From SAR324 cluster bacterium REDSEA-S27_B3 (GTDB lineage: Bacteria > SAR324 > NAC60-12), in assembly GCA_001627865.1 (NCBI GenBank), contig LUQO01000013.1, forward strand, positions 44,714 to 108,713: a stretch of DNA of 64,000 nt. Reading direction: 5' to 3'. Positions within the stretch are counted from its first letter, which is position 1. Each line of letters begins with the position of its first letter. Position numbers and translations under genes: made by a program. Below the pieces are notes generated by a model, which was not told the origin of the DNA, did no database searches, and saw only the letters and a program-made list of their open reading frames with translations. Below, piece by piece: positions 28,996 to 56,869 of this stretch.

Positions 28996-29001
28996 GACAA
29001 A

Positions 29002-31670: not shown

Positions 31671-31714
31671 TACAAAATCATGTGAATTTCCTGAATCCTT
31701 GACTCAAAGGAAGC

Positions 31715-33742
31715 ATGCTCAGTTCAACTGAACAAATTGCCTTCGTTCTTCTGGTGCTGGTCTGTGGGGGGGTGGCGTTCCAGGGTTTTAGGAGAATCTT
31801 TGTTATTGTTTCTCAGGGAAAGCCTTCTTACCGGACCGATGAGTTTCTATCGAGGCTGATCAAGGCCCTCATCGAGGTTGGTCTGCAGAAACCGCTCTTC
31901 AAGTCCCGACCGATTGTCAGTCTTTTCCACGCCTTCATCTTTTTTGGATTCAGTTTCTACTTGCTGGTCAATTTCAATGACCTGCTGGAGGCCTACGTCT
32001 CGGGGTGGACTACCATCGATAGCTCCCATCCTGTGGCGTTGGGATTTAATCTTTTTTCCGATCTGTTCAGTATCCTGGTTTTGATAGGAATAATTTATTT
32101 CCTCATTCGTCGTTTCATAGGCAAGCCCAGGGTTTTTGAATTCAATAGAAACGTCAAACTACAGACTAAAGTAGTGGGAGGAGGGATTCGTAGGGATTCT
32201 CTGATCGTTGGGATCTTCATCATCCTCCATGTTGGATCACGTTGGTTGGGGACTGCTTTTCATTTGGCGGAGCGGGAAACTACAGAATGGTCTTTACCCA
32301 CGGCAAGCTTGGTGGCACCGTTATTTTTTGGCTGGAGCGGTTTGGAAACAGGAATCCATGTCACCTGGTGGCTTGCAATGGGCTTGATTGTCTTTTTCCT
32401 TCCTTATTTTCCAAGAAGCAAACACATTCACATTTTCCTGGCTCCTCTGAATCTTGCTTTTACCAATCGTGAGGCCAAAGGCAAACTTCTTGACCCAGTG
32501 GATGGGTCCAATCCTGGTGCGGCAACCCTGGATGAACTTCCCTGGAAACAAGTCTTTGATTCCTATGCCTGCATCATGTGCACACGCTGCCATGAGGTCT
32601 GCCCTGCGCATCAGTCTGGGACGCCATTGAGTCCTTCCGCACTGGAAATCAATAAACGTTATTTTATCAACCAGCATGTTTCCGGATTGGCAAAAGGAAG
32701 TACCAAACTGGATTTGCTGAAGGATGCAATTTCAGAAGACGCGGTCTGGTCCTGCACCACCTGTATGGCCTGTGTGGAAGTCTGTCCGGTTGGCAATGAA
32801 CCGATGCAGGACATTCTCCAGATCCGCCGGAAACTGGTATTCGATGCACGGATGCCGGATGAACTTTCGGACGCCCTTCGCAGCCTTGATGAACAGGGTA
32901 ATTCTTTTGGAGAGTCCTCACGAAAACGTACACGCTGGACCAGGGAACTGAACTTCGAGATAAAAGATGCTTCCAAGGAATCGGTGGAATACCTCTGGTT
33001 TGTTGGCGATTTTGCATCCTTCAACCAGAATTGTGTGGAAAATACAAGAAGGGTGGCAGAGGTTCTCAATGAGGCTGGTGTTGATTTCGGAATCCTCATG
33101 AAAGAAGAGAAATCGGCTGGAAACGATGCCCGTAGGGTTGGAGAGGAAGGTCTGTTTGATGCGCTCGCGGAAGAGAACATCAAGACCCTCGAGAATTGTG
33201 ATTTCCAGCATATCCTGACTACTGATCCTCATACCTATAATACTCTGTTAAACGAGTATCCTTCAAAGGGTGGAGTTTATTCGGTGAAGCATTATTCAAC
33301 GCTGCTGCTGGAACTGATTCTATCGGGGAGGATCAAAATCATCAAACCTCTCAAAATCAAAGGCACCTATCATGACCCCTGTTACCTTGGACGATACAAT
33401 GGAATATTCGATGCCCCGCGTGAAGTGATGCAGCATTGTGGAGTTGAACTCCTTGAGATGCCCCGAAACCGAATCAATTCCTTCTGTTGTGGTGCAGGCG
33501 GAGGACAGGTCTGGTTAAAGGAACATGAGGAAATGAAGCAACGTCCCAGTGAAAATCGGATTGAGGAGGCCCTTCTACTCAATGTCGAATATTTCACTGT
33601 AGCATGTCCCAAAGATATGACTATGTATTCTGATGCCGTCAAGACCTCTGGTAACGAAGAGAAGATGGTAGTACGTGATTTGATTGACTATGTCTTTGAA
33701 GCAATGGATCTGCCGGAAGACTCAAGAAAATCAATCGAGTAA
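31715..33742 (+). CDS. Membrane-anchored HdrD/DsrK-like FeS oxidoreductase (Etf:quinone oxidoreductase EMO-like; N-terminal HdrE/NarI-like TM domain)
   Basis: 5-6 N-terminal TM helices with conserved His, then 2x[4Fe-4S] (CIMCTRCHEVCP, CTTCMACVEVCP) and CCG domains (CYLGRYNG, CCGAGGGQVWL). Confidence 0.7.
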   Translation: MLSSTEQIAFVLLVLVCGGVAFQGFRRIFVIVSQGKPSYRTDEFLSRLIKALIEVGLQKPLFKSRPIVSLFHAFIFFGFSFYLLVNFNDLLEAYVSGWTTIDSSHPVALGFNLFSDLFSILVLIGIIYFLIRRFIGKPRVFEFNRNVKLQTKVVGGGIRRDSLIVGIFIILHVGSRWLGTAFHLAERETTEWSLPTASLVAPLFFGWSGLETGIHVTWWLAMGLIVFFLPYFPRSKHIHIFLAPLNLAFTNREAKGKLLDPVDGSNPGAATLDELPWKQVFDSYACIMCTRCHEVCPAHQSGTPLSPSALEINKRYFINQHVSGLAKGSTKLDLLKDAISEDAVWSCTTCMACVEVCPVGNEPMQDILQIRRKLVFDARMPDELSDALRSLDEQGNSFGESSRKRTRWTRELNFEIKDASKESVEYLWFVGDFASFNQNCVENTRRVAEVLNEAGVDFGILMKEEKSAGNDARRVGEEGLFDALAEENIKTLENCDFQHILTTDPHTYNTLLNEYPSKGGVYSVKHYSTLLLELILSGRIKIIKPLKIKGTYHDPCYLGRYNGIFDAPREVMQHCGVELLEMPRNRINSFCCGAGGGQVWLKEHEEMKQRPSENRIEEALLLNVEYFTVACPKDMTMYSDAVKTSGNEEKMVVRDLIDYVFEAMDLPEDSRKSIE

Positions 33743-33880
33743 AAAAGGATTAAGACTTTTCTATAAATTGGCTTGATAAAATCAGCTACTCTGATAAAAA
33801 TATCACTATCTTTAAATGTTTTTGTTTCTAACAATTGAGCTAAATAAAGTACTTGAGTGAACTAAAGTAAAGAAAAGGTA

Positions 33881-35086
33881 ATGTTATTAGATACAACTGC
33901 AGAGGAGCCTTACAGCATAAAAGCGGCTTTCTGCAACGGCTATGAAAGGCTGTTCGATCGGCAATGGCCTATCTGGATTGGAGGGTTACTACTGGGAATG
34001 GGGAATGTGCTCCTGTTTGCCTTTGATAGACCCTGGACCGTCTCAAACGGTGTGAGAAACTGGGGTGACTGGTTTTTCAACCAAATCGGTGTAATTCAGA
34101 TGAATGTCCTTCCTCCAACTCTTTTTACCAGTTCAGTACTGTGTTTCGGAATGATCATCGGATCACTGGTGGCAGCATTGCTTGGCAGGCAGTTCCGGGT
34201 TCGTATGGCGCCAGCCAGGGAATTGTTCAAGGGGCTGCTCGGCGGAGTACTGATGGGAATCGGGGCTTCCCTCGCTTTCGGCTGCAATATAGGAGGTTTT
34301 TTTAGTGCAATCAGCGCACTGTCAATGGCAGGCGTGGTCATGATGGTCGGATTGATGGTAGGAGCATTTGTCGGGTTGAAACTGCTCATCTGGGAGATAG
34401 AGTATCTCCCAGCAACTTCCTGGGGGGTGCGACAAGTACCGAACAGGGATGACATGTCGGGTGTACCGAGTAGAGCCCAGCCAATTTCAGGGTTATTGGT
34501 TTTGCTGCTGTGTATCATTGTGATCTTCACTTACGATTCCTTTGATTATTCCGTAAGCGGCGGATTTATGCTCTTTGGACTGCTTGTAGGCATCGTCATG
34601 CAGCGTACACGCTTCTGCTTTGTAAGGGCTTTCAGAGACCCTTTCATGACGGGTGATGCGGAAGCTACTAAAGCAGTTGCACTTGCGGTCATCATCAGCG
34701 TAACCGGGTTCACAATCCTGAAATGGACGGATTTGAGGTCCTGGGATGTTTCTGTATTACCAGGTTTTTGGATTGGCAGTCTGATGGGTGGTATCATCTT
34801 CGGGATTGGAATGTCCCTTAGTGGTGGTTGTGCATCGGGTACTATCTGGCGGGCTGGAGAGGGACAGGTTAAACTCTGGGTCACACTTGTCACGTTTGCA
34901 CTGAGTACGTCCTACTTCAGGGACTGGCTAGTTGCTAGTGGATTGAGGGCTAAACTTGGAACTGAGCTTTTTTTGCCTGATGTTATTGGTTGGAAGATGG
35001 CACTAATCATCATTATTGCCATAATGTTATTTTGGTACTTGATGGCAGTTTGGAATGAAGTCAGCAAAAAATTGGTGGTGGTATAA
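33881..35086 (+). CDS. YeeE/YedE-family membrane protein (putative thiosulfate/sulfur-compound transporter)
   Basis: Two-repeat polytopic protein with conserved GCNIGG and GGCASG cysteine motifs typical of YeeE/YedE (TsuA-like). Confidence 0.7.
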   Translation: MLLDTTAEEPYSIKAAFCNGYERLFDRQWPIWIGGLLLGMGNVLLFAFDRPWTVSNGVRNWGDWFFNQIGVIQMNVLPPTLFTSSVLCFGMIIGSLVAALLGRQFRVRMAPARELFKGLLGGVLMGIGASLAFGCNIGGFFSAISALSMAGVVMMVGLMVGAFVGLKLLIWEIEYLPATSWGVRQVPNRDDMSGVPSRAQPISGLLVLLLCIIVIFTYDSFDYSVSGGFMLFGLLVGIVMQRTRFCFVRAFRDPFMTGDAEATKAVALAVIISVTGFTILKWTDLRSWDVSVLPGFWIGSLMGGIIFGIGMSLSGGCASGTIWRAGEGQVKLWVTLVTFALSTSYFRDWLVASGLRAKLGTELFLPDVIGWKMALIIIIAIMLFWYLMAVWNEVSKKLVVV

Positions 35087-35320
35087 AATTTTGGAATGAG
35101 GCTAGGAGACAAAACAATTTCCCAAGAAGGGCTCAACCGAATTGGGTAAAGGAAGGAGTCGAAAGCGAACCGTTAATTAAAACACAAAAGGAGGTAGTCA
35201 TGAAAAAATAGATTATTTATTGTATGTTATATAATTGGCGGAATTGTCCGCTGAGTCTCCTCCCTGGTTTTGAAGTGGGAAGAGTAAGAATCATTAATTG
35301 ACATTTATAAGGAGAAAGTT

Positions 35321-36625
35321 ATGAAAAATAATTCAATTCTATTGGTAGCATTTGCGTTCTTAGCTGGAATAATTTCAGGATGTGTAACTACTGGCGGAGC
35401 AAAATTTGGAGCACCATCAAAAGGCATGAGTCCTGCGGAATATGAGTCTTTGGTTAGGCTGGACCCACAGAATACAATGAAGGCAAATTTTTCTGTAGTT
35501 AAAGGAATGGATGGATATTTCCTTATTGATAACCAAGGTGAAAGTACTATTTCGGTTGTAGACTATAATAAAGGGGAGACAATCAAAAAAATTAAGTTAA
35601 GTGACCCTCCTGGCACCTCTTTTAAACCCGCAGGGAATCATCACATTTTTGTAATTCCTGGCGGAAGATATGCTTGGTCTTCGCAGCGATATGAAAAAGA
35701 TGTAATGTGGACTATAGATTTAACAACCCATGAGGTAGTTGATACTTTCAGATTAAGTATGGGAGGTAAAACAATAAAAGCACCCTTGCATATTGGATTT
35801 GCATACAAATCCCCTTTGGCGGTAACAGGTAATATCTTAGATAAAAAAAATGGATATCTTACTTTTTTGAGAACCGACACTCGCCGTCCTTCCCACATAG
35901 TTGATCTGAGTTGTTCAGGAGCTAGGGACGCAATGTTCACATTCGATGACTCAAAAGTTTTTACTACTTGCCAGCAGGAACCAAAGGGGGCTTCGATTGT
36001 TGACGTAAGTGGAAGAAAAGAAATCAAATTTATTCCTATAAAGGGAGGGAGAGCTGGAGGAATGACTCCCGACGGGAAATATTTTCTAGTTGGAGCCTCA
36101 AAGGCAGTTGTCCTAATTGATACTGCTACAAATGAAATTCACAAAACCATCAAAGTTCCTGGTGGTGGAGGTAATTTCACTTGTCTTCCAGATGGATCAA
36201 AGTGCTATGCAGGTTTAAGGAAAGACAATTCAGTCGGAGTAATTGATATGGCGAGTCTTGAACTGATTAAAGTCATAAAAACCGGTAAAAACGGTAACCG
36301 ACTCTACTTAAATCCTGCAAATCCCAGATACGGAATTTTTACTAATGAATCTGGTAAATCGGAAACTGTATCTGTAATTGATACCCAGAATGATGTTAAG
36401 ATCATTGATATAGAGACAGGTCTGAAACCTCATAATGTTGCTTTTAATCCAGAAGGAACACGAGCAATTATTTCAACTCCAAAGGAAGAAGTAGCAACTC
36501 TTGTTGATACATCATCATCAGATCCTACTAAGTGGGAAATAATTACCACAGACATTGATTCGGGTATAGAAAATAACGGCGTGCGCTGGGTACCTAGTCC
36601 AAGTGCTATAATAGCTGCAATGTAA
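35321..36625 (+). CDS. Lipoprotein with YVTN-type beta-propeller repeats
   Basis: Lipobox LAGIISGC. Repeated ~40-aa units with D/N-x-S-V-I-D motifs. Low GC relative to upstream operon. Confidence 0.5.
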   Translation: MKNNSILLVAFAFLAGIISGCVTTGGAKFGAPSKGMSPAEYESLVRLDPQNTMKANFSVVKGMDGYFLIDNQGESTISVVDYNKGETIKKIKLSDPPGTSFKPAGNHHIFVIPGGRYAWSSQRYEKDVMWTIDLTTHEVVDTFRLSMGGKTIKAPLHIGFAYKSPLAVTGNILDKKNGYLTFLRTDTRRPSHIVDLSCSGARDAMFTFDDSKVFTTCQQEPKGASIVDVSGRKEIKFIPIKGGRAGGMTPDGKYFLVGASKAVVLIDTATNEIHKTIKVPGGGGNFTCLPDGSKCYAGLRKDNSVGVIDMASLELIKVIKTGKNGNRLYLNPANPRYGIFTNESGKSETVSVIDTQNDVKIIDIETGLKPHNVAFNPEGTRAIISTPKEEVATLVDTSSSDPTKWEIITTDIDSGIENNGVRWVPSPSAIIAAM

Positions 36626-36819
36626 GGATTTGAATCTAAAGATGATCAAATAATGCAAATTGCTGCATCAGAGTAGAATAATATAGCTGGTGGTCGAAAT
36701 TTTATAAATAGATTTTTCGGCCACCAATTTTAATGTGTCTTTCTGCTCTAGATAAATTATTTGTTTATTAGCAAATAAAATATTTGCTCTAATTTTAATT
36801 CACAGTCTAGGAGAATTGA

Positions 36820-37287
36820 ATGAAAAATATAGAAAATTTTTCAAGAAGGAAATTTCTTAACTATACGATGGTTGGAGGGCTGACAATTCCTCTCCTATCA
36901 GTAATTCCTTCATCAAATGACGCACATGGCGCAGTTTTTCAAACCCCAAAAGATTTAGAAAATTTGACGGAATTAGAAAGAATCCATTTGCCTAAAATAT
37001 CATTGCCACCAGTTGTTGAAGATGGTGCTAGTGCATCAATAGTTTGTAGTGTTGACCATCCAATGGATGAAGACCACTACATAAAAAGTATTCAAATTAT
37101 GAATTTTGCAGATCCTATTGTTATAAAAGGAAAATTTTTCCTTACCCCTGTTAACGGAGAAGCATATTTAAGTACTCAAATTCGTCTATCTGGAGGTGAA
37201 GGAACAGTTTGGGTAATAGCAGAGTGCAACAAGCACGGTAAATGGGCAGCAAGTAAAAAAGTGACTGTAGCAGCTGGAGGGTGTTAA
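36820..37287 (+). CDS. soxY: SoxY-like sulfur-carrier protein
   Basis: Tat signal SRRKFLNYTMVGG, SoxY-like core, C-terminal swinging-arm Cys (KKVTVAAGGC-stop; canonical GGCGG truncated to GGC). Confidence 0.65.
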   Translation: MKNIENFSRRKFLNYTMVGGLTIPLLSVIPSSNDAHGAVFQTPKDLENLTELERIHLPKISLPPVVEDGASASIVCSVDHPMDEDHYIKSIQIMNFADPIVIKGKFFLTPVNGEAYLSTQIRLSGGEGTVWVIAECNKHGKWAASKKVTVAAGGC

Positions 37288-37288
37288 A

Positions 37289-38905
37289 GTGTGGGACAGC
37301 TCTGATTGGGCAAAAACTTTTTTATTCAAAGTTTATTTTGCAAGTGTTTTTTTATTATTATTGCTAACTAATGCAGCTAACTTATTAGCTTCTGCAACTG
37401 AACAAATCAGGATAATCACTACAAACGATATACACGCCTATTTAAAGCCAATATATTATCGCTACCTTGATGACATAAAACCCTGGGGTAAAGTATCTCG
37501 TGAAGGGGACTACGTCAATAAGGCCAAAATAGAAGGAAAAATCGGTGGGATGGCACATGTTGCATCCATGATCAAAAAATTAAAAGCAGAGAAACCAGGT
37601 AAAAATCTCCTGTTTGATGCTGGTGATACCTTGCATGGTGGAGGGATTACTTTTTTTGACAAGGGCGTTGCAATGGTTAAGATAATGAACGCTATCGGAT
37701 ATGATGCAATGGTTCCAGGGAATTGGGAATTCTTCTATAAAAATGATCATTTCCTTGATCTTATTGACAAGGCTAACTTTCCGGTAATTGCCTACAATCT
37801 TACTGACAAAGAATGGGAAGAACCAGCGCTTGATCAGTATATTATCCGTAAAGTAGGACAACTAAAAGTTGCTATAGTTGGCTATACTTATCCTTGGACA
37901 GCCCTAACATCAGCAATTACTGGGGCTGCTAAATGGTACAAGTTTGGTATCAAAGAAGATGAAGCTCGGGATTTATTAGCGGGAATAAGAAAAAAGGAAG
38001 ATCCGGACCTGGTAGTTTTCATTTCTCATGGAGGGTTCGGTCTTGATCAAAAATTTGCTAAAAGAGTGGATGGAATTGATGTCATGCTAAGTGGACACAC
38101 ACACGATGAAGTACTGGACCCTGTAGTATGGAATGATACACTGGTCTTTCAGGGTGGTGCCCATGGGAAATATGTAGTGAGTTTGGATTTGGAAATAAAA
38201 GACAAAAAAATTATTGATTTTGAGTATCGGCTTAATAAGGTTATGCAGAATAGGATTGATCCAGATCCTGAGGTTTCAAAATTAATAGAGGATGCATACC
38301 TGCCATATGAGGCAGAATTATCAAAAATCATAGGCAAGTCAGAAGTTTTAATGCATCGACGAGACTTTTGGCAGAGTACAGTCGGTAACTTGATCACAGA
38401 TGCAATGAGGGAAATCCAGAAAACAGACGTTGCTTTTTTTCCTGCTTGGCGTTTTGGAGCCTCGGTATTACCGGGAAAGATAACCAAGGAGGATTTATAT
38501 AATGTTATTCCGACAGAAGGCCATATTTTTACCTTTTCAATGAGGGGAAAAGAGATAAAAAATCTCCTTGAAAACATTTTAAGTTCAGTAGTAAACAAAG
38601 ATCCATATATCAGGGTGGGTGGTGATATGATTCGATTTTCTGGAATGAAAATTCTATGTGATCTTGCAAAGCCTGCCGGCAAAAGAGTTTTAAGAATAAA
38701 TATAGGAGGAGAAGAATTTTCCGAGGAAAAAGTTTTCAGTGTTGCTTCTGCTCATACAAGATTTCAGAATAACCCTCTATTTGGTGCAACTCATGTAAAG
38801 GATACCGGCAAAATGATTGTAGAAGAATTAATCAACTACATCGAGAGAAAATCTATCATAAAATCAACCTTGGATGACAGAATCAAAGTATTAGCTTTTG
38901 AGTAA
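37289..38905 (+). CDS. soxB: SoxB-like dinuclear-metal 5'-nucleotidase-family sulfate thiohydrolase
   Basis: Signal peptide. Motifs NDIHAY, DAGDTLHGG, GNWEF; C-terminal 5'-NT substrate-binding domain. Located between soxY and soxZ. GTG start overlapping soxY stop. Confidence 0.6.
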   Translation: MWDSSDWAKTFLFKVYFASVFLLLLLTNAANLLASATEQIRIITTNDIHAYLKPIYYRYLDDIKPWGKVSREGDYVNKAKIEGKIGGMAHVASMIKKLKAEKPGKNLLFDAGDTLHGGGITFFDKGVAMVKIMNAIGYDAMVPGNWEFFYKNDHFLDLIDKANFPVIAYNLTDKEWEEPALDQYIIRKVGQLKVAIVGYTYPWTALTSAITGAAKWYKFGIKEDEARDLLAGIRKKEDPDLVVFISHGGFGLDQKFAKRVDGIDVMLSGHTHDEVLDPVVWNDTLVFQGGAHGKYVVSLDLEIKDKKIIDFEYRLNKVMQNRIDPDPEVSKLIEDAYLPYEAELSKIIGKSEVLMHRRDFWQSTVGNLITDAMREIQKTDVAFFPAWRFGASVLPGKITKEDLYNVIPTEGHIFTFSMRGKEIKNLLENILSSVVNKDPYIRVGGDMIRFSGMKILCDLAKPAGKRVLRINIGGEEFSEEKVFSVASAHTRFQNNPLFGATHVKDTGKMIVEELINYIERKSIIKSTLDDRIKVLAFE

Positions 38906-38946
38906 ATGAATACCACTGGCTTAAACATTTTAAATCGAGAAGAAGA

Positions 38947-39300
38947 ATGGCAGAAAAGATAAAGCCCCCTCGCATAAGAGTTTCCAGACGTATCAAAAAA
39001 AATAAGGTTTTCAAGGTGAAGGTTAAGTTTGACCACCCTTCATTCACAGGACTGGCAATGGCTGACGATACAACAGAGCCCGTTTTTAACAGAGCAAAGC
39101 CTGTAACTTTCATTAGAAATATGCTTGTATACTATGGAGATGAACTTGTCAGTCGTTTAAGTTTATCTTCAGGTATTGCAGATGATCCACTATTTACATT
39201 TAAATTAAAAGCTACTAAGGAAGCACCAGTAAAGATTGTTTTCATAGATAATTTTGGTAAAAGATGGGAAGCTTCCAAAGAAATAAAATTTAAAGGCTAA
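38947..39300 (+). CDS. soxZ: SoxZ-like protein
   Basis: Aligns to SoxZ pattern (IKPPRIRVS / KPRVKVP; VKFDHPSFTG; IVFIDNFGKRWE). 117 aa. Confidence 0.7.
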   Translation: MAEKIKPPRIRVSRRIKKNKVFKVKVKFDHPSFTGLAMADDTTEPVFNRAKPVTFIRNMLVYYGDELVSRLSLSSGIADDPLFTFKLKATKEAPVKIVFIDNFGKRWEASKEIKFKG

Positions 39301-39347
39301 AAGCAATTCATTTAGCCATTTGCTAACCAATAAAAAAATAGTTTATC

Positions 39348-40055
39348 ATGAAGAAATTTTCACAGATTTTTGTGATTTCTTACTGTTTTTCTTTTTTCTT
39401 GTTCCAGACAATTTTTGCTGGAACAGTGGTAGATAAGTTTAAAATTGAGGGAATAATTTCTATTGCGAGTACAAAAGCATTACAGTCTGAGCTTCTAAAA
39501 AAGCTTGATATTAAAATTTTAGATTTAAACCTGAAAAAAACTGATTCTGGATGGCCTGTTCTAAGAATTGAATATGATCCGGATATTATTTCGAAAAACA
39601 AAATTGAAACTGTTATTGGTGAAATAGAAGACCCGGCTGGACACAAGTATAAAGTTCATAAAGGGCCACTGATTGCTAATGCAAATCTTATAGATGAAGA
39701 GAATCAAGCAATGACGATATTAGGTGATATGACTATGGATTTAAAACAAGTTAATAATCCGACAGTCGATTTTGATTCTTCTATCAAACGCGGAAAGGAC
39801 GTGTTTATAAAAAACTGTGCTAAGTGCCATGGGTTGAATGGGAATGGATATGGAGTAGTTGCCCACGGATTTGCAACTTGGCCAAGACAGTTATGGGCTT
39901 GGTATAAAGCAGATAGTGCGGCTGATAGCTACTTGTATTGGATAATTGAAAATGGCAAATCAGATATGCCTCCGTGGGGACTTGTTCTTTCGGAGGATGT
40001 AAGATGGGATTTAATAAATTATATTAAAACAATAAAAAAACCTGAAGAAAATTAA
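39348..40055 (+). CDS. Monoheme c-type cytochrome (SoxX/SoxA-like)
   Basis: Signal peptide, single CAKCH heme-binding motif, downstream Met/Pro-rich region (SDMPPWG). Confidence 0.55.
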   Translation: MKKFSQIFVISYCFSFFLFQTIFAGTVVDKFKIEGIISIASTKALQSELLKKLDIKILDLNLKKTDSGWPVLRIEYDPDIISKNKIETVIGEIEDPAGHKYKVHKGPLIANANLIDEENQAMTILGDMTMDLKQVNNPTVDFDSSIKRGKDVFIKNCAKCHGLNGNGYGVVAHGFATWPRQLWAWYKADSAADSYLYWIIENGKSDMPPWGLVLSEDVRWDLINYIKTIKKPEEN

Positions 40056-40109
40056 TAATTAATATCCATAAATTGTTAAAAGCTTTATGAAACCATAATA
40101 ATCTCCAAT

Positions 40110-40532
40110 ATGGACGTTTCAGAGGATATTGTAACAAGAAATTTTTCTGGAATGAACTTTGATGAGGTGCTTGAATACTTAATTCAAGAAGTTAAAGCCC
40201 GAAACTATCTTATTACTCGTATAAACAATATTGATAATATACATGACCGTCTTAATGGAGATGCTGAAAACAAGGTAAGATTCAAATTTTACAAAATTGT
40301 GGAATTTTGTAACTTGGAAAGTTGCAGCCAGCTGATTTCCACTGACCTCACAGCGGGTGTATTTATGCCTGTGAAATTTGCAGTCTATCAAGCAGATAAC
40401 AAAGAACAAGTTTTTGTCTCATTTTTAAAACCCACCGCTTTTGCCAGTATTTTCAATTCTGAAAGAATGATGAGAATTGCAGAAATATTAGAAAAAGACA
40501 TGTATGAAATTCTTGATGAAATTATTTTCTAG
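40110..40532 (+). CDS. DUF302-family protein
   Basis: ~140 aa with DUF302-like pattern; the family commonly accompanies sox genes. Confidence 0.5.
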   Translation: MDVSEDIVTRNFSGMNFDEVLEYLIQEVKARNYLITRINNIDNIHDRLNGDAENKVRFKFYKIVEFCNLESCSQLISTDLTAGVFMPVKFAVYQADNKEQVFVSFLKPTAFASIFNSERMMRIAEILEKDMYEILDEIIF

Positions 40533-41127: not shown

Positions 41128-42762
41128 GTGTCCCTGATTCCAATCATGCATAGCTTTACCGCGTACCAGTGGTACTCGGCAACTCCTAAATGTCTGGTAT
41201 ATTTCTTAACGGCACTGATCATCCTGATACCTCATGCTACAGCGTTTGAGCATGAAGGGTCATCGGTAAATTTCCAGGAGTACAGCCGCGATGTAATCAG
41301 GAAAAACAGAGAGAAAAACAAGCCGTATTTTCTCCTTTTTGCCGCTCAGTGGTGTCACTGGTGTGACGTTTTCAATGAAGAAACGCTGAGCAGGAAAAAA
41401 GTGTATACCTACCTGCGAAATCATTTCACGAACATTTTCATAGACGCAGATATCCATAGCTCTGCCTACCGCAAATACAAGGCGACAGGTGTGCCTTTTA
41501 CTGTATTTTTAAATCCTGACGGTTCCCTCTATTACAAGTATGCTGGAACGCTTTATGCGGACGAATTCCTTGAGGTAATCCAGGATGTCCATAAAAATAT
41601 TTCCGAAAACAGATCTGTGGATGGGGAAGAAAATTCTCAAATAGAGTATGTCCCCCCTGCTAAACTTAAAAAAGCCGACCTGGTGAAATTACGTGAAATG
41701 TTCCACCAGGGAATTCTAGACAACTTTGACTTGAAAGAATATGGCCTTGGTACGGGTGAAAAATCCATACTTCATCAAACCTTTCTATACCTTTTACATT
41801 CTTTGAGAGGAACCGACAGGAAAGATGCCATTCGATGGATCACCAGGACTCTGGAAAAAGCAGTTGAGCATATTTACGATCCGGTCGAAGGGGGATTTTT
41901 CCGGTATGCTGAAAAAAAGGACTGGCAAATACCACACTATGAAAAAATGGCTGACCTGAATGCCGGCGCTGTTATGATTATGTATGAAATCAACAGGCAA
42001 AGTCCCTCTCCTGATTTGAAAAAAGCTGCAGATAAAACCGTGCAATATTTGACTTCGACATTGTTTGAACCGAATATAGGCTCTTTTTTGAGTTTCCAGG
42101 AAGCAGATACTTCATACTATTTTCTGAGTGGTGATCACCGCAAGCATGAGCATCGGCCCAATGTTGTAGAAAAGGTTTTTACCGACCGACTTGCAAAAAC
42201 TCTTGTTTATCTGATAGATGTGCTCGACTACACCACACGGAATTCACTGGAGGAGAAGGTAACCCAGTCTCTTGATTTTATGGCAGAAATGATTCTCAAT
42301 AATGATCAGCTATACCATTACTATTCTATTTCAGAAAGGCAGTGGCTTCGCAGCGGCAGTCTGCCCGACTACGCCTATTCTGCGACACTGTTTCTCAAAG
42401 CAGCAACAAAATTTCAAAGCAATCATTACCATGAGGTTGCCATGAAGATTCTACGGCTGTCAAAGGCAAGGTTCCACGACGCAGAAAAACGGATCTTTTT
42501 CGATCCATCTATGGACAGTTTAGATGATGTAGAGTATCTCATGGAGATGAACGGGCTGTTTGCCCAAATGATGTTAGACATGGAAATGATCCAGTGGACA
42601 AACGATGATCATCGAAACCAAACAGAACCGATGATAACCTATTTTTCTGCAATGGAAGAGTTGCTTGAAGACCAAATTTGGGATGCTGAAAACTGGAAGT
42701 TTGCTGAGCGTTATGTACCTTACTTGAAAGCTGTTGACAAATTCCTTGCTTCCAGGGAGTAA
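41128..42762 (+). CDS. Thioredoxin-domain protein (DUF255/YyaL-like) with (alpha/alpha)6-barrel-like C-terminal region
   Basis: N-terminal TM, thioredoxin motif AAQWCHWCDVF, long C-terminal domain. Confidence 0.55.
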   Translation: MSLIPIMHSFTAYQWYSATPKCLVYFLTALIILIPHATAFEHEGSSVNFQEYSRDVIRKNREKNKPYFLLFAAQWCHWCDVFNEETLSRKKVYTYLRNHFTNIFIDADIHSSAYRKYKATGVPFTVFLNPDGSLYYKYAGTLYADEFLEVIQDVHKNISENRSVDGEENSQIEYVPPAKLKKADLVKLREMFHQGILDNFDLKEYGLGTGEKSILHQTFLYLLHSLRGTDRKDAIRWITRTLEKAVEHIYDPVEGGFFRYAEKKDWQIPHYEKMADLNAGAVMIMYEINRQSPSPDLKKAADKTVQYLTSTLFEPNIGSFLSFQEADTSYYFLSGDHRKHEHRPNVVEKVFTDRLAKTLVYLIDVLDYTTRNSLEEKVTQSLDFMAEMILNNDQLYHYYSISERQWLRSGSLPDYAYSATLFLKAATKFQSNHYHEVAMKILRLSKARFHDAEKRIFFDPSMDSLDDVEYLMEMNGLFAQMMLDMEMIQWTNDDHRNQTEPMITYFSAMEELLEDQIWDAENWKFAERYVPYLKAVDKFLASRE

Positions 42763-43135
42763 ACATGTATTGCATTTTCGACGTGAATATCTAAAGACCT
42801 GCGATTATTTTGATAATTCTATTCAGTATTTATTAATGCTGAACCTGATTTAACCTCAGATTTTTTTCTTGCAAAAAAAGTGTATAGTGATATATTCGAT
42901 ATATCGGATTATTGTTTAATATAATAAACAAGTTTAAATTTTTACTCAAAATTCACTGAATTTGAATGGTAACCACTAGTATGTTTGGGTTCTTATGCTA
43001 AACCAGAACGTCATAAGATCTACTGCTTCGTCCGGAATGACAAGCCTAAGTAAGTAATTTCAGTATCTTATGGTAACCCGTGAGCCAAATAATACACAGA
43101 ATAATTTAAAGATTAAGTCAGAAATAAGGAGAGTT

Positions 43136-43423
43136 ATGGGAGTATTGATTGAAATACCTTCTGCATTAAAACAATATGTAAACAACCAGGATGAGGTCGA
43201 AGTTGACGGCAGCTCAGTTGAAGAGGCATTAGATTCTTTATGCACACAATTCATTGAACTCAAACCAAACCTGTTTGATGAAAATGGCATAGTCAGAAAT
43301 TTCATCAATGTCTATCTCAATGATGATGACATTCGCTATGCTGATGGCATGAAGAGTACTGTTAAGGACGGAGACAGCATTCAGATTGTCCCTTCAGTAG
43401 CGGGAGGATCTGTATACAGCTAA
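43136..43423 (+). CDS. MoaD/ThiS/CysO-family ubiquitin-like sulfur-carrier protein with C-terminal extension after GlyGly
   Basis: RBS AAGGAGAG upstream of ATG 43136. Beta-grasp-like sequence ending ...IQIVPSVAGG-SVYS-stop. Four residues after GG imply proteolytic maturation. Confidence 0.6.
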   Translation: MGVLIEIPSALKQYVNNQDEVEVDGSSVEEALDSLCTQFIELKPNLFDENGIVRNFINVYLNDDDIRYADGMKSTVKDGDSIQIVPSVAGGSVYS

Positions 43424-43434: not shown

Positions 43435-44170
43435 ATGACTTTAAATAATGAGGAAATCAACCGCTACAGCCGGCACCTGACTTTGCCTGAAGTCGGCATG
43501 GGGGGTCAGTTGAAGTTGAAAGAGGCCAAAGTACTGATGATTGGAGCCGGGGGTCTGGGATCGCCATTGGGAATGTATCTGGGTGCTGTGGGAATCGGGA
43601 AACTCGGGTTAGTTGATTTCGATGTAGTTGATCACACAAATTTGCACAGACAGATAGCGCATGCCGCGTCTGATGAGGGCCGGCCTAAAGTTCATTCTCT
43701 ATGCGACACAATTCTAGCGGGTAATTCCAATATTGAAGTTGAGGTGCATAATATTCGCCTTGAGCGTGAAAACGTTCTGGAACTGTTCGGGCAATATGAC
43801 ATCATTGCTGACGGATCCGATAATTTTGAGACTCGATACCTGATCAATGACGCGGCATATTTTACTAAAAAGCCGCTTGTATCTGCTTCAATTTTTCGCT
43901 TCCAGGGACAGATAACAATCTTTGATCCTGAGTCCGGAGGGCCATGTTACCGGTGTCTCTACTCAGAACCTCCTCCTGCCGCACTGGTTCCAAGTTGAGC
44001 AGTTGCGGGAGTCCTGGGCGTGCTCCCGGGAGTTGTTGGACTGATACAGGCCACAGAAGTAATTAAGCTGATTCTGGAGAATGGAGTTCCCCTTATGGGA
44101 CGCTTGCTCTTGTATGACGCCATGAAGATGAATTTCAAAGAGGTACGTGTCTGCAGTACAGGAAGAATTT
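43435..44170 (+). CDS. MoeB/ThiF/MoeZ-type E1-like adenylyltransferase with in-frame TGA (candidate selenocysteine) at the conserved Cys position
   Basis: Nucleotide-binding motif GAGGLGSP. CxxC (PCYRCL). ORF stops at TGA 43996-43998, but the same frame continues with AVAGVLGVLPGVVGLIQATEVIKL... which aligns to MoeB TCVEAGVMAPLIGVIGSLQAMEAIKML. The TGA occupies the Cys187(MoeB)/Cys184(ThiF) position. Confidence 0.55.
43996..44028 (+). promoter_or_regulatory. Candidate SECIS-like hairpin immediately downstream of the in-frame UGA
   Basis: 7-nt spacer after UGA, then 6-bp GC-rich stem CGGGAG (44006-44011) / CTCCCG (44023-44028) with 11-nt loop UCCUGGGCGUG carrying GG/GU ~18-22 nt after UGA. 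Confidence 0.35.
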
Positions 44171-44497
44171 GACGAGGACTCATTTGAGCTTTCCCCCCTG
44201 GAATTCAAAACTGCGCTTGAGCAGGACCTTGGAGCAGTGCTGATTGATGTTCGAGAACAATATGAATGGGACATCTGCTACATTGACGGCGCAAGGTTGT
44301 TGCCAACCAGCAGTTTTGATCCCTCAACCAGCGGACTGGATACGGAAACACCGATATATTTATATTGCTACAAAGGTCAGCGTTCAATGACAGCTTTGAA
44401 GGAACTCTGGAACGCCGGTTACAAAAATCTTAAAAACCTGAAGGGTGGCATTGATCTCTGGGCGGAAGAAGTTGATCCGGATATGCCGCAATATTAA
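44147..44497 (+). CDS. Rhodanese-domain sulfurtransferase (MoeZ-type C-terminal domain, here in +1 frame relative to the E1 gene)
   Basis: Rhodanese motifs LIDVREQYEWDICYIDGA and active-site Cys loop CYKGQRS. GTG start at 44147 overlaps the E1 3' end by 24 nt. Upstream residues in this frame match the MoeZ linker. Confidence 0.6.
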   Translation: MSAVQEEFDEDSFELSPLEFKTALEQDLGAVLIDVREQYEWDICYIDGARLLPTSSFDPSTSGLDTETPIYLYCYKGQRSMTALKELWNAGYKNLKNLKGGIDLWAEEVDPDMPQY

Positions 44498-44804: not shown

Positions 44805-47060
44805 ATGGAGATCCCGGAAAATATATTAACAGAGTGTCATGAGTACGGAGTAGCAGCTTATCCGGAAGAGACCTGTGGCTTTATCATAGGAAATCGGGAA
44901 GTTCCGGATTCGCTTGAGACTGTATTGCCGATGCGCAATATCATGAATGATCTGCATGAGAAGGATCCGGCGCAGTATCCGCGTACCGCCCGTGACGGAT
45001 ATGTGATTGATCCGCTGGAGCAATTGAAACTTGAACGTTCCCTTAAAAAAGAAGGGAAGGAAATTAAAGTAATTTATCACAGTCATCCGGATGTTGGGGC
45101 TTATTTCTCAGCAAAAGACAAGGAAGACGCGCTGTGGAACGGGAAGGCGCGTTATCCCGGTGTAAGTTTTCTGGTCTGCGGAACAACCGATGGAAAACCT
45201 GATGGGGCTATTATTGCGGACTTTAATCAGGACAGCGGAGATTTTGATATAACTCCGGTTACTGTCAATTCATCTGCAGCGTCCGGGGGTCTTGTAGGTG
45301 GCACTTTTGGAATTACCGGAATCCTGCCCACCATTGATTTCATTCATGAGTGGAAAAATGGAAATCGTGAACTGCAGTACGGATATTTTCGTTTTGTTAA
45401 CCACCAGCACATCAAAGACCTGCATGCAGAGTTGTGTTCCCGTTCAGGAGCAAGGTACGCGCTCACTTACTGTTCCGGAAGCGCCGCTCTATTTGAACTG
45501 TTGATTTATCTGCGTGAATCCCTCCCAAATATAAATCTTTATTTTTCCTCCAATTCAGCTCTTTCTGCTGACGGAATCCAGAGCCTTGAAATTTCGTGTA
45601 AATCGCTTGATCTGAAAAATCTGATTGATCCGGAGTTGCTGTCCGCAAAGAACGGAGATGTTTTGCTGTTGGCGATGGAAGCTCCGGAATTATTTGTAAA
45701 AGAAAATTCAGAATGGCTGGCAAAATTAAAACGCCAGAGGGTGACAGTTATTTTTTACTCCTCAAATCTGCAGGCTTCTGATCAGTGGCCAGTCGGACTT
45801 ACTTTCTGGATATCTGCAATCAGCAGTCCGGAAACAGCTACAAAACATTCCGGAATTGAAGGCGGAGTAATCCTCAGCAACGCGGACCGGCAGATTGCTG
45901 AATTGACTGAGACACGCAAACGTAACGGTTCTGTTCTGTCCGCCCGCAATGCCGCGGTTTTGCTCAAAATGCTGAAGGAAGAAGATACAGATTTGCATGA
46001 CATTGCCAAACTTTCCGGAATTAACAAAACCTGGGAACTTTCAAATCCGGAGCAGAAGATTACAGAAAAGTTATGTGAATGGGAACATGCCACAGCCGGT
46101 TTTTTATTTCCTTCAGGCATGTCGGCAGTTCATTCCGTGATGAATCTTCTGCGTAAAAAAAGCAAAAACCAGGTTATCGTGATCGGTTTAATGTACAGCG
46201 ACAGCTACAACCTGCTGATGAGTCCGGGACGATCATCCAGATGGGAGGCTGAATTTGTCGGGCTGGATGAACTGGAGAAGTTAGATCAGATTATTTCTGA
46301 GAATACCGCAATGATTGTCACTGAAACAATAACAAATCCTCTTGTGGAGGTACCAGATTTAAACAGGATCGGAGATATTGCTTCGGCGCATGAAGTGCCG
46401 TTTGTTGTTGATAACACGATTGCCTCTCCGGTAAATTGCCAGCCAATAGACTACGGAGCGGATTATGTAATTCACAGCACCACCAAATATCTGAGCGGCA
46501 GCAATGATCACGCTGGTGGAGTTGTGCTGGCAAAAAATTCACGGAACGCTTCCGCAATCGAGAATTTCCGACGCTGCTGGGGACTGAGGTTATCTCCTTT
46601 AGAGTCAACAGTTCTCTGGGAATGCATGCAGGACTTTGCTGAACGGATGGCTCGGTTTAACTCAAACTGCACTGCCGTGGCTGATTTCCTGTCTGAGCAT
46701 GCAGCAGTTGATATGGTTTACCATCCATCTCAAAGTTCTCATTCTTCATATTTCACTGCAAAAAAACTGCTCAGCGGAAATGGAGGAGTGGTCAGTTTCA
46801 CTCTGAAGGACGAAAGTGAAAATGCTTTGAAGATATTCCATGACAAAGAATTTTCTTCAATAATCAAGGCACCGTCAATTGGTTCAAATCAAACCTTGAT
46901 TTGTCCGTACCCAATGCTGACACACTATTTTGACACTGATGAAGATCTCAGGGAAATCAAGCTGCCTCGTCACCTGATCCGTGTCTCTGTGGGCTGCGAA
47001 ACAGAAATTGAGGGGATATTAACTGATTTAGACTGCGCGCTGAAAAGGACTATTCAGTAA
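44805..47060 (+). CDS. Fusion protein: N-terminal JAMM/MPN+ metalloprotease (Mec+/HcyD/QbsD-like), central degenerate PLP-like region, C-terminal Cys/Met-metabolism PLP-dependent enzyme (MetY/CGS-like sulfhydrylase)
   Basis: JAMM motif HSHPDVGAYFSAKD with upstream EETCGFIIG. C-terminal domain with PLP-lysine motif HSTTKYLSGSNDHAGG and typical end LIRVSVGCE. Central ~250 aa faintly resemble a second aminotransferase-fold fragment. Confidence 0.7.
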   Translation: MEIPENILTECHEYGVAAYPEETCGFIIGNREVPDSLETVLPMRNIMNDLHEKDPAQYPRTARDGYVIDPLEQLKLERSLKKEGKEIKVIYHSHPDVGAYFSAKDKEDALWNGKARYPGVSFLVCGTTDGKPDGAIIADFNQDSGDFDITPVTVNSSAASGGLVGGTFGITGILPTIDFIHEWKNGNRELQYGYFRFVNHQHIKDLHAELCSRSGARYALTYCSGSAALFELLIYLRESLPNINLYFSSNSALSADGIQSLEISCKSLDLKNLIDPELLSAKNGDVLLLAMEAPELFVKENSEWLAKLKRQRVTVIFYSSNLQASDQWPVGLTFWISAISSPETATKHSGIEGGVILSNADRQIAELTETRKRNGSVLSARNAAVLLKMLKEEDTDLHDIAKLSGINKTWELSNPEQKITEKLCEWEHATAGFLFPSGMSAVHSVMNLLRKKSKNQVIVIGLMYSDSYNLLMSPGRSSRWEAEFVGLDELEKLDQIISENTAMIVTETITNPLVEVPDLNRIGDIASAHEVPFVVDNTIASPVNCQPIDYGADYVIHSTTKYLSGSNDHAGGVVLAKNSRNASAIENFRRCWGLRLSPLESTVLWECMQDFAERMARFNSNCTAVADFLSEHAAVDMVYHPSQSSHSSYFTAKKLLSGNGGVVSFTLKDESENALKIFHDKEFSSIIKAPSIGSNQTLICPYPMLTHYFDTDEDLREIKLPRHLIRVSVGCETEIEGILTDLDCALKRTIQ

Positions 47061-52168: not shown

Positions 52169-52672
52169 ATGTCGGATAATCATGAAATGGAATTTGTAAT
52201 TGGTGTAGGATGGTATGAAGGAGAATACAAGCACGGAAAATTTGACGGTAAGGGGTCATTCAATTTTTCTGACGGCAGAAGGTATGAAGGCGAATTCAAA
52301 AATGGTGAAAAACACGGCAAAGGAACATTCACTTTTCCTGACGGCAGAAAATATGTTGGTGAATGGAAAAATGGTAAAAGAAACGGTTTTGGAACAGTCA
52401 CTTCATCTGAAGGATACAAATATGTGGGAGAATTCAGGAATGGGAAATGGGACGGCAAGGGCACTTTCACCGCCGCGGACGGAATGAAGTATGTGGGGGA
52501 ATTCAAGCATGGAAAAAATAATGGTTATGGAACACTCACTTTTCCTGATGGAGAAATGTGGGATGGTGAATTCAGAGAGGATAAACCCTGGAACACCACG
52601 CACCATGACAAAGATGGAAATATCTTTGGAAAATACGTTGATGGAAAATGGAACAGCGCGGATCCAAACTAA
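52169..52672 (+). CDS. MORN-repeat protein (family member 1)
   Basis: Six YxGEFKxGKxxGxGT MORN units, then the family C-terminal motif DKPWNTT.HDKDGNIFGKYVDGKWN. Confidence 0.6.
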   Translation: MSDNHEMEFVIGVGWYEGEYKHGKFDGKGSFNFSDGRRYEGEFKNGEKHGKGTFTFPDGRKYVGEWKNGKRNGFGTVTSSEGYKYVGEFRNGKWDGKGTFTAADGMKYVGEFKHGKNNGYGTLTFPDGEMWDGEFREDKPWNTTHHDKDGNIFGKYVDGKWNSADPN

Positions 52673-52903
52673 TGAAACATAATATCAAGACAGAGTGCGG
52701 CAAAGAAAAATATGAAAAACTTTCAAAACGCAAAGGTTTTTTCAACAGGCTGCGCTTTTATTGGTTTGTTTTGATTGGCTCAATAATGGATTTTGGGAAA
52801 GAGAATGCAGTCTGTAAAGAATAAAATTTGTCTTAGGAAGAATTAACTTTTGTTGCAAAACAATTCTGTAAACCGCCAGCATTTGTCAAATTAAAAGTAT
52901 GTT

Positions 52904-53308
52904 ATGAAAAAATTTCTATTTGCATTCAACATTTTGCTGATCATTTTATTTACTGGATGCGGGGACAAGGGTGAATATGTCGGAGACCTGATAAACGAAG
53001 TGCCTGATGGAAAAGGAGTAATGACTTATGAGGATGGATCAAAGTATGATGGCGAATGGCAGGAAGGGAAAAGATTCGGCAAAGGCACCTTAACTTATGA
53101 AGATGGAGCAAAGTACGAAGGTGAATGGAAAGAGGGTGAAATGGAAGGAAAAGGCACATACACCTGGTCAAATGGCGATAAGTATGAAGGTGAATGGAAG
53201 CAGGGCAAAAAACATGGTCAGGGGACAATTCTGTATAAAGATGGAAGCAAGCTGGAGGGAGAGTTCAGGGATGGCAGTCCCTGGAATACAACACTTTACG
53301 ACAAGTGA
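52904..53308 (+). CDS. MORN-repeat lipoprotein (family member 2)
   Basis: Lipobox FTGC, four MORN units, C-terminal SPWNTTLYDK. Confidence 0.6.
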   Translation: MKKFLFAFNILLIILFTGCGDKGEYVGDLINEVPDGKGVMTYEDGSKYDGEWQEGKRFGKGTLTYEDGAKYEGEWKEGEMEGKGTYTWSNGDKYEGEWKQGKKHGQGTILYKDGSKLEGEFRDGSPWNTTLYDK

Positions 53309-53371
53309 AGCAAAATCATCGCATAGAAAATCAGACTCTGCATATCAACATTTACAGGTTTTCTCATCAAT

Positions 53372-54454
53372 ATGAGAAATCATCTCTTCATCACTTTATC
53401 CTGCCTGCTTTTCAGCTCAACCCTGTTTGCCCAGCAAACCGGTATACTCTATCAATGGGAAACCTCTCCCGGCAAAACCTGGAAAACATTTGGAGATCAG
53501 GACGCGCAGCTGAAATACGAAGGTGAAATAAAAAATGGCATACCTGAGGGATTGGGCGTGTCTTCGTTCCATGGCACAACTTATCTTGGTCAATGGCAGA
53601 ATGGAAAAAAACACGGAAGGGGAACATACACCTCTTCTTTTGGAATAAGGTACACAGGAGAATTCAAGCAGGGCAGACGGGACGGGAAAGGAACACTGAC
53701 ATCGCCAGACGGAGAGAAATATGTGGGCGGATTCAAGGATGGCAAGCGGGACGGACAGGGGATCTTCACTTCACCTGATGGAGAAAAGTATGTAGGGGAA
53801 TTCAGGCAGGGCAAATATCATGGACAGGGGACTTTTACCTGGTCAGATGGGACACAGTATATAGGTGTTTTCAGGAAAGGACTTCAAGCCGGTGAGGGAA
53901 CATTAACTTATGGAAAAGGGGAAACAGAAGGCGACAGATATGAAGGCGAATTCAAGGAGGGCAGAAAACATGGCCAGGGGACCTACATTTCTGCTGATGG
54001 CAGAAAATATGTTGGGGAGTGGATAGAGAGCAAACATGATGTCCATGTAATCCTCTCACTTCCAGATGGAGATAAATATACAGGCGGATGGAAAGCAGGC
54101 AGGCTGCATGGCCAGGGGACTTACTATTTCTCAGACGGTGCCATTTACCAGGGTGAGTTCAAAGATGGGAAACGACATGGCCGGGGAACAAATACATGGG
54201 CAGATGGAAGTAAATATGATGGAGAATGGCTGGGTGGTAAAAGGCATGGTCATGGAGTTTTCAGCTGGGCTGATGGTGAAAGCTATATGGGTGAATGGAA
54301 AGATGGTAAGTATAATGGCCAGGGAACTTACACTTTAGCAGACGGCAGAAAAGGAGTGGGTGAGTTCAGAGATGATAAACCGTGGAACATCACGAATTAT
54401 GACAGCTTCGGGCATGAGATAGGCAGCTGGGTTGAAGGTGAAAAAAAGTATTAA
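53372..54454 (+). CDS. MORN-repeat secreted protein (family member 3)
   Basis: Signal peptide, ~12 MORN units, C-terminal DKPWNITNYDSFGHEIGSWVEGEKKY. Confidence 0.65.
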   Translation: MRNHLFITLSCLLFSSTLFAQQTGILYQWETSPGKTWKTFGDQDAQLKYEGEIKNGIPEGLGVSSFHGTTYLGQWQNGKKHGRGTYTSSFGIRYTGEFKQGRRDGKGTLTSPDGEKYVGGFKDGKRDGQGIFTSPDGEKYVGEFRQGKYHGQGTFTWSDGTQYIGVFRKGLQAGEGTLTYGKGETEGDRYEGEFKEGRKHGQGTYISADGRKYVGEWIESKHDVHVILSLPDGDKYTGGWKAGRLHGQGTYYFSDGAIYQGEFKDGKRHGRGTNTWADGSKYDGEWLGGKRHGHGVFSWADGESYMGEWKDGKYNGQGTYTLADGRKGVGEFRDDKPWNITNYDSFGHEIGSWVEGEKKY

Positions 54455-54899: not shown

Positions 54900-55022
54900 C
54901 CAGGTACCTTCTTTGTTTAAGTTCGGACTTCTATTCAAATGCCCGCAACTTGCCTGATTCTTGAAATACACAGCATGATAGTATATGTTAGGCAAAAATA
55001 ATCCAACCACTCAGGAAATATT

Positions 55023-55931: not shown

Positions 55932-55957
55932 TTCAATTCATTAATACCTCTTAGTTG

Positions 55958-56694: not shown

Positions 56695-56869
56695 TGATCA
56701 GCTGATTAATTGCTTCAGATCTTCCCGGTAATAAAGTCCGCAAAAAAAATCCCTTTCAGTTTTGTTTATTGTTTAACTTTGCCGGAATAATAATGTCTTG
56801 TTATCACCTTCTGTATCTGATCAACTTTACAGAAAACATCTCTTAAAGTAATTCTTTCGGAGCATAGCA

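Follow-up and report, generated by a model that had tools for sequence, protein, structure and literature searches.

The stretch analysed here, hereafter the window, comprises 64,000 nucleotides (nt) of contig LUQO01000013.1 from the SAR324 cluster bacterium REDSEA-S27_B3. It contains a gene for an E1-like adenylating enzyme of the MoeB/ThiF type, which is interrupted by an in-frame UGA codon and followed, in a second frame, by a rhodanese domain. A sequence-only reading of the window had singled out this gene as a candidate selenoprotein gene, in which the UGA specifies selenocysteine (Sec), and had noted a possible selenocysteine insertion sequence (SECIS) downstream. Here, we compare the gene with its orthologs and conclude that in a MoeZ-type E1-rhodanese family of SAR324, the UGA most likely encodes Sec at the catalytic Cys of the E1 crossover loop. 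The gene is made up of the following features:

43435..43995, plus strand: E1 adenylation domain, codons 1-187 (Pfam ThiF), including the first CxxC (C171-Y-R-C174)
43996..43998, plus strand: in-frame UGA, the probable Sec codon (residue 188), at the position of MoeB Cys187 and of the Uba4 catalytic Cys
43999..44150, plus strand: continuation of the E1 domain, codons 189-239, up to a deletion junction; aligns with MoeB and Uba4
44013..44030, plus strand: SECIS-like hairpin (arm CCUGGG 44013-44018, loop CGUGCU 44019-44024, arm CCCGGG 44025-44030)
44150..44151, plus strand: junction of a 95-nt deletion with a +1 frame change, from alignment with the orthologous loci L008, L009, L011, L014, L017 and L001
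44170..44172, plus strand: TGA that ends the E1 frame in the deleted allele, after the out-of-frame tail CSTGRI
44147..44497, plus strand: rhodanese domain in the +1 frame, with the active-site loop C-Y-K-G-Q-R-S (Pfam Rhodanese, E = 1.6e-16)

Direct reading bears out that the frame starting at 43435 runs past the TGA at 43996-43998 and stays open for 57 more codons, until the TGA at 44170-44172. Pfam ThiF covers residues 11-239 of the read-through product (E = 1.3e-74), and the nucleotide-binding GxGxxG motif is present in the E1 translation as IGAGGLG. In a phmmer alignment to Escherichia coli MoeB (1jw9_B), counted along the alignment row, the stop falls on Cys187, with the CxxC at residues 172 and 175. 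It likewise aligns with a Cys of Chaetomium Uba4, the residue that was mutated to trap Urm1 and is a Lys in chains 6yuc_D and 6z6s_DDD. Because the alignments with MoeB and Uba4 agree, the place that had been assigned to the stop, at the MoeB Cys187 position, is correct. The residues around it read LVPS-U-AVAGVLGVLPGVVGLIQATEVIK, with U standing for the putative Sec.

Ortholog DNA was drawn from the gene index, the GTDB species representatives and Joint Genome Institute (JGI) metagenomes. TGA is found at E1 codon 188 in 42 loci, which represent 24 distinct sequences of 58-99% protein identity and include 21 GTDB species representatives and five JGI metagenome contigs. The species representatives, a mixture of metagenome-assembled genomes (MAGs) and single-amplified genomes (SAGs), are named SAR324, 'Deltaproteobacteria bacterium' or 'Lambdaproteobacteria', and two of them are single-cell genomes. 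Apart from the genotype of the window (the window itself and L007/L127), all TGA forms have an E1-rhodanese frame of 385-386 codons with exactly one internal stop. At the protein level, around 40 clusters at 80-99% identity among the best 120 matches listed stop at the same codon, yielding products of 187 residues, or of up to 203 with a longer N-terminal extension, whereas full-length homologs are single E1-rhodanese proteins of 383-390 residues. The comparison of Cys with TGA codons among relatives, which had been proposed in the sequence-only reading, sets close relatives, with TGA, apart from 77 more distant homologs that have TGC or TGT at the aligned codon.

Selection on the codons that follow the TGA acts at the level of the protein. 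Across orthologs, the ratio of nonsynonymous to synonymous substitutions (dN/dS) for codons 189-245 is 0.03-0.22. The proportion of synonymous differences (pS) is 0.4-0.8, and since synonymous sites are thus near saturation, the orthologs are not copies of a single sequence. In codons 189-192, first and second positions are essentially fixed, the exceptions being codon 190, where V alternates with E, and a single divergent sequence, whereas third positions approach saturation (1.4-1.7 bits). The low dN/dS downstream, together with fixed first and second and free third positions, indicates that ribosomes read through the UGA. Judged from these alignments, the UGA is read in frame and deeply conserved in the clade, and the hairpin that follows it is under nucleotide-level constraint, as described below.

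The family is poorly served by public annotation, where gene callers split the gene into open reading frames (ORFs) of 187 and 190 or 193 residues. The 187-residue N-terminal product has an exact match in at least 86 index blocks of the contig collection, and NCBI nr entry MBS1256777.1 is such a 187-residue fragment, labelled 'putative adenylyltransferase/sulfurtransferase MoeZ'. None of the best 120 protein-database matches carries a full-length selenoprotein annotation. When Sec is replaced by Cys in an intact ortholog, the product stays below the NCBIfam cut-offs of both related equivalogs, MoeZ (NF005902, 435.6 against 647) and, just barely, MoeB (NF006444, PRK08762; 440.5 against 449). 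The only NCBIfam model that it passes is the MoeB subfamily NF004281 (288.7 against 266).

The hairpin at 44013-44030 corresponds to the RNAalifold consensus helix of the 24 distinct TGA sequences. With the U of the UGA as nt 1, nt 18-23 pair with nt 30-35, which puts the start of the helix 14 nt past the UGA; in the window, a U44012-A44031 pair can lengthen it by one. The motif occurs once in the window. The six core pairs give 144 cells, of which 142 hold a standard pair, and most changes in the core keep the pairing (U-G to U-A six times, C-G to U-G twice and G-C to G-U once). Third codon positions within the element (nt 18, 21, 24, 27 and 30) show 0-0.5 bit of entropy in the TGA forms, compared with 1.2-1.8 bits in the flanks, and nt 33 is only ever G or A. 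The mean third-position entropy in Sec forms (n=24) is 0.34 bit for the core against 1.51 for the flanks, whereas the corresponding values in Cys forms (n=76 distinct), which encode the same GV(L)G(V/I)LPG peptide, are 1.44 and 1.52. A complete helix is present in 22 of 24 Sec forms but in just 2 of 76 Cys forms (Fisher p = 1e-17, without correction for phylogeny), and the 17-nt core string in 20 of 24 and 0 of 76, respectively. The lower stem is not conserved across the TGA forms.

This element is not the hairpin originally suggested. The sequence-only reading had placed a SECIS-like stem at CGGGAG 44006-44011 and CUCCCG 44023-44028, with an 11-nt loop. That structure can form, and it is the minimum free energy fold in a 71-nt context, but only 71.5% of its cells pair across the 24 distinct orthologs, and two of its six pairs are disrupted in most of them (12-32 in 19, 15-29 in 16), which rejects it as the SECIS. 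The expectation of a SECIS-like element after the UGA holds in a different, overlapping register (44013-44018/44025-44030). In the E. coli fdhF SECIS, the helix starts about 11 nt after the UGA, and the loop has G23-U24. The SAR324 hairpin resembles that element in that it, too, is a stem-loop that lies inside the gene shortly after the UGA and has a G-U in its small apical loop (nt 25-26). It differs in its helix start (14 nt), its length of just 6-7 base pairs, its lack of an evident bulged U, an unconserved lower stem and the lack of an Rfam model match. Under our interpretation, the hairpin would act as a bacterial SECIS to which SelB binds with its Sec-tRNA(Sec), resulting in Sec insertion at the UGA. 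The proposed recoding at the catalytic Cys is thus supported by TGA conservation, purifying selection, the Cys homologs and the hairpin.

Several observations weigh against Sec at this position. Genes for SelA, SelB, SelD or tRNA-Sec were not found in the 64-kb window (tRNA scan, Rfam, and Pfam on the ORFs treated as genes) or in the fetched loci, and 25 related loci contain no tRNA genes, including tRNA-Sec. In a 2016 survey, two SAR324 single-cell genomes are classed as 'orphan SelD': SelD was found in them, but SelA, SelB and selenoprotein genes were not (PMC5029168); this listing is the only link between SAR324 and selenium that our literature search found. The same survey does place SelD in the SAR324 lineage, since it was found in both SAGs (PMC5029168). 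Residual doubt about Sec persists because the evidence on the machinery comes from the window and the fetched loci only. The two single-cell assemblies are, we presume, incomplete. As for the hairpin, no double compensatory change occurs among the 24 TGA sequences, so that support for the helix comes from conservation and not from covariation. Since the Sec forms are one related clade, the Fisher test treats them as more independent than they are. Folding energies of single sequences do not surpass those of shuffles (z = -0.79, and -1.84 to +0.61), no Rfam family matches, and a permissive-threshold scan of 43950-44100 gave noise only. Finally, the mechanism attributed to Sec188 and the product of the pathway, both discussed below, are drawn from homologs only.

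The family itself is not new, as MoeB selenoproteins were reported in 2005, when Zhang, Fomenko and Gladyshev described 'Molybdopterin biosynthesis MoeB protein' as a new selenoprotein family of the Sargasso Sea, comprising 11 sequences, and predicted a SECIS for it (PMC1088965). It appeared again in the Global Ocean Sampling data of 2008, with 19 sequences (PMC2398784), and was included in reviews of 2022 and 2026 (PMC9312934, PMC13188914). Compared by description only, the window gene very probably belongs to this family. Both are of the ThiF/MoeB type (COG0476, PF00899), have one in-frame UGA, Cys homologs and a predicted stem-loop directly 3′ of the UGA, and come from the open ocean. The 2005 and 2008 papers give the family name, the sequence counts and an inferred link to molybdopterin only. 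Beyond those reports, the present analysis provides the SAR324 host, the MoeZ-type E1-rhodanese fusion, the exact Sec position, a defined SECIS core and a carrier-protein context that argues against a role in molybdenum cofactor (Moco) synthesis. Together with the branching pattern of Sec and Cys forms and a deletion private to the window genotype, these are what is newly added; the system is not of a new kind.

In its present form, the window copy of the gene is atypical. The rhodanese domain is fused in frame to the E1 domain in all TGA-form orthologs except the window genotype, and in intact orthologs, the frame runs 197 codons beyond the TGA. The 57 codons seen in the window are therefore a truncated remnant, left by the frame shift of the 95-nt deletion. 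The deletion removes residues ...RKDPECTLCGKHPTVTELIDYREFCDIQLPGT..., i.e. the second pair of CxxC zinc ligands and the E1-rhodanese linker. Of the structural zinc site, the window copy retains C171-x-x-C174 and has lost the second CxxC (C-T-L-C in L009), while both motifs are present in all other TGA-form orthologs. Apart from the window, the deletion is carried only by L007 (GCA_001628555.1, contig LULR01000061.1), which is 100% identical to the window over 6.5 kb, and the 116-residue rhodanese ORF that the deletion creates occurs in only 2 contigs of the gene index. Contigs from other samples that are >99% identical are intact, as are the sister MAGs GCA_001627795.1 and GCA_018263475.1. For this reason, the deletion is to be seen as a private allele or an assembly artefact and not as a property of the family, and the same intact contigs rule out a programmed +1 frameshift at 44150.

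Whether the lesion is real at all is close to an even call, with the balance leaning slightly against an assembly or consensus artefact of one MAG, in which case the organism would have an intact 385-residue Sec-E1-rhodanese gene. Such an artefact would fit the small number of contigs with the deletion: there are two, of which the readable one (L007/L127) matches the window exactly and one derives from the Red Sea MAG GCA_001628555.1, and near-identical contigs of other samples and sister MAGs lack the lesion. Yet the junction, read directly, has no repeat or microhomology that an assembler would collapse, the deletion is found in contigs of two lengths (42.7 kb and 50-200 kb), and low-frequency deletion alleles are common in real populations. 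The window allele is probably either crippled or split, or else mis-assembled, and with its private, frame-disrupting deletion, it may lack a working enzyme.

Among alternatives to Sec, decoding of the UGA by a near-cognate or suppressor tRNA (Trp, Cys or Arg), stimulated by the hairpin and independent of SelB and Sec, is unlikely. It would account for the fact that the Sec machinery of SAR324 was not demonstrated in the loci examined, and for the classification of two SAR324 SAGs as orphan-SelD (PMC5029168). It does not readily explain why the UGA stands at the catalytic Cys, which is the classic Sec/Cys pairing, or why the hairpin has bacterial-SECIS geometry, with a small, GU-containing apical loop about 22 nt after the UGA. 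Moreover, SelD exists in SAR324 SAGs, TGA stops translation efficiently elsewhere in the window, and the family was previously called a selenoprotein family with a predicted SECIS (PMC1088965).

We also consider it quite improbable that SAR324 lacks canonical SelA and SelB, in line with the 2016 'orphan SelD' entry, and decodes this UGA, with its frozen 18-nt hairpin, non-canonically, or, in a milder variant, that Sec is ancestral and serves a selenoester or selenosulfide E1 chemistry. The non-canonical route might be a different Sec-insertion system or a SelD-dependent chemistry on the read-through residue. In the milder variant, one sub-clade may have reverted to Cys, and protein-thiocarboxylate formation may proceed via a selenoester or selenosulfide intermediate. 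Bearing on the latter is a neighbour-joining tree without support values, in which the Sec forms are paraphyletic to a Cys sub-clade. Four TGA forms on GC-rich contigs (L035, L048, L049 and L050; one MAG labelled Deltaproteobacteria and three JGI metagenome contigs) have 58-60% identity to the window and an identical 17-nt hairpin core. They branch outside the clade that joins the SAR324 Sec forms to the Cys-form clade (P0024, P0029, P0030 'Deltaproteobacteria bacterium TL4', P0040 and P0041). Because of this branching, Sec is possibly ancestral, with one reversion to Cys, and the tree would be consistent with a single gain of Sec followed by that reversion. A further TGA form, L030:3001-4158 (FRAM18_bin343, on an 843-kb contig), encodes a mosaic E1. 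Both ends of the protein match the SAR324 family, and residues ~98 to ~190 derive from a different E1 lineage (...GAVPT-TGA-GEAGVLG). The mosaic gene nevertheless keeps the TGA at this position, and its hairpin core is unchanged. The mosaic suggests recombination with a second Sec-containing E1 paralog.

A truly split gene, with termination at the UGA and a restart at GUG 44020-44022, 27 nt downstream, is very unlikely. It would give two polypeptides, and the conserved nucleotides would then be a restart signal with a GGAG-like Shine-Dalgarno sequence instead of a SECIS. Gene callers do annotate a downstream ORF of 190 or 193 residues, the window has GGGAG 8 nt upstream of the GUG, and the third-position G of the GUG is invariant. 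However, the codons between the UGA and the GUG (A-V/E-A-G-V-L-G) must be translated, since their amino acids are conserved while third positions vary freely, and this protein-level selection rules out the restart. The Shine-Dalgarno-like positions vary among orthologs (GGGAG, AGGTG, CGGCG and others), whereas third positions in the spacer and after the GUG, which a restart would not need, are fixed and mutually paired. The reading frame is unbroken in the 24 sequences, and splitting it would delete the catalytic residue exactly where homologs have their Cys.

The alternative that had been raised alongside Sec, a nonsense mutation in a decaying pseudogene, is barely tenable: the second lesion of the window copy and the 187-residue product of public annotation speak for it, but the TGA is kept across the divergent sequences, purifying selection continues past it, and other stops or frameshifts are restricted to the window genotype, the deletion being confined to 2 contigs, while the 187-residue part occurs in at least 86 index blocks. 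Reassignment of TGA in the genetic code is ruled out, because TGA acts as an ordinary stop, with short in-frame extensions, for 17 of the 59 ORFs of the window that were treated as genes. A scan of the window for long in-frame extensions beyond TGA revealed no other selenoprotein genes.

The E1 gene is flanked by two genes that point to its possible function:

43070..43423, plus strand: ThiS/MoaD-like sulfur-carrier protein (Pfam ThiS, E = 6.4e-11; NCBIfam SAMP1 and MoaD family)
44805..47060, plus strand: fusion of a JAB/MPN+ metalloprotease (HSHPDVGAYFSAKD motif) and a Cys/Met-metabolism pyridoxal phosphate (PLP) enzyme, 751 residues

Other gene callers start the carrier at 43136. In the window, it ends in ...IVPSVAGG followed by the 4-residue tail SVYS, and the orthologous carriers of 15 loci end in IVPS[VI]AGG plus a non-conserved tail of 0-7 residues. 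The carrier gene lies upstream of E1 in 36 TGA-form loci, the JAB-PLP fusion lies downstream of it in SAR324 TGA-form loci, and the trio is kept in 35 TGA-form loci. Neither ThiS nor JAB-PLP neighbours were seen beside L035, L049 and L050 within the fetched flanks. Cys-form relatives mostly have the gene order JAB, ThiS, E1. The fusion protein matches Pfam Prok-JAB (E = 1.4e-16) and Cys_Met_Meta_PP (E = 4.4e-79), and it falls below the cut-offs of all NCBIfam models for cystathionine gamma-synthase and O-acetylhomoserine sulfhydrylase. Its residues ~130-410, between the JAB domain and the Pfam-matched PLP part, have no Pfam or NCBIfam family match.

By analogy with related systems, the gene context suggests thiocarboxylate-dependent Cys/Met synthesis rather than molybdopterin synthesis; the JAB-PLP fusion probably processes the tail of the carrier and consumes its thiocarboxylate. 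In such a pathway, the JAB domain would trim the variable tail of the carrier, exposing its Gly-Gly end, after which the E1 would adenylate the C-terminal Gly-Gly of the adjacent ThiS-like carrier. A persulfide on the rhodanese Cys would supply the sulfur, and Sec188 would either attack the acyl-adenylate or resolve an acyl-persulfide formed with the rhodanese Cys persulfide. The product would be the carrier thiocarboxylate, on which the JAB-PLP enzyme would draw to form homocysteine or cysteine.

Similar gene sets are the CysO/MoeZ (Rv3206c)/Mec+/CysM system of Mycobacterium tuberculosis, in which an E1 stands beside a carrier with a masked Gly-Gly, a JAB protease and a PLP sulfhydrylase, and the HcyS/HcyF/HcyD/MetY system of Wolinella succinogenes, with carrier, E1, JAB and PLP genes of the same kinds. 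M. tuberculosis MoeZ also has a rhodanese fused to the E1, as in SAR324. The SAR324 system differs from the MoeZ and Hcy systems in having Sec in place of the E1 loop Cys and in the fusion of the JAB domain to the PLP enzyme. The best match of solved structure is Uba4/MOCS3 (6yub, 6yuc, 6z6s; E = 5e-56), which shares the two-domain architecture. Unlike the SAR324 E1, it is eukaryotic, acts in tRNA thiolation, urmylation and Moco synthesis, and has Cys, not Sec, at the loop position.

Recognition of the Sec codon has consequences for how these genomes are read. In dozens of SAR324 assemblies, the gene is cut at 187 residues and split, causing Cys/Met and sulfur metabolism to be misread. An abundant dark-ocean lineage once classed as 'orphan SelD' very probably decodes Sec. 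Furthermore, a natural Sec at the E1 loop Cys offers a useful means of probing what this residue does in MoeB, ThiF and Uba4 enzymes, which is debated.

Just upstream of the cluster, 41128-42762 encodes a DUF255/thioredoxin-like protein with a WCHWC motif. Its domain match to the NCBIfam model of the selenoprotein TsoB is weak (52.6 bits against a cut-off of 805), and in the window, it is a CxxC protein and not a selenoprotein. A large sulfur-oxidation gene set occupies 8920-13568 and 23029-40532. It comprises two GCV_H-like lipoate-binding proteins, two LplA-like ligases, two radical-SAM proteins, DsrE, HdrA/B/C-like Fer4/CCG/Pyr_redox proteins, a Rieske protein, ETF alpha and beta, a Sulf_transp transporter, SoxY, a SoxB-like protein, SoxZ, cytochrome c, DUF302 and SCO1, and looks like an sHdr-LbpA type system with a partial Sox system. 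In the orthologous locus L001, a block of FGE-sulfatase, LETM1, Kdo-transferase and HTH genes directly adjoins the ThiS-E1 genes, and because it abuts them there, about 20 kb of the window (23-43 kb) is absent from L001.

At the left end of the window, positions 1-2870 of the minus strand encode the N-terminal part of a large ketosynthase-acyltransferase, similar to a polyketide synthase (PKS) or a polyunsaturated fatty acid (PUFA) synthase (MANRPIAVVGMSALFPDAPN...). No ORF was listed at 1-2870 because this one extends past the window end. A plus-strand frame with multiple TGA codons at 1837-2700 is spurious, being antisense to the PKS-like gene. Further downstream, 52169-61486 holds at least seven genes for MORN-repeat proteins, with an NnrU gene interspersed.

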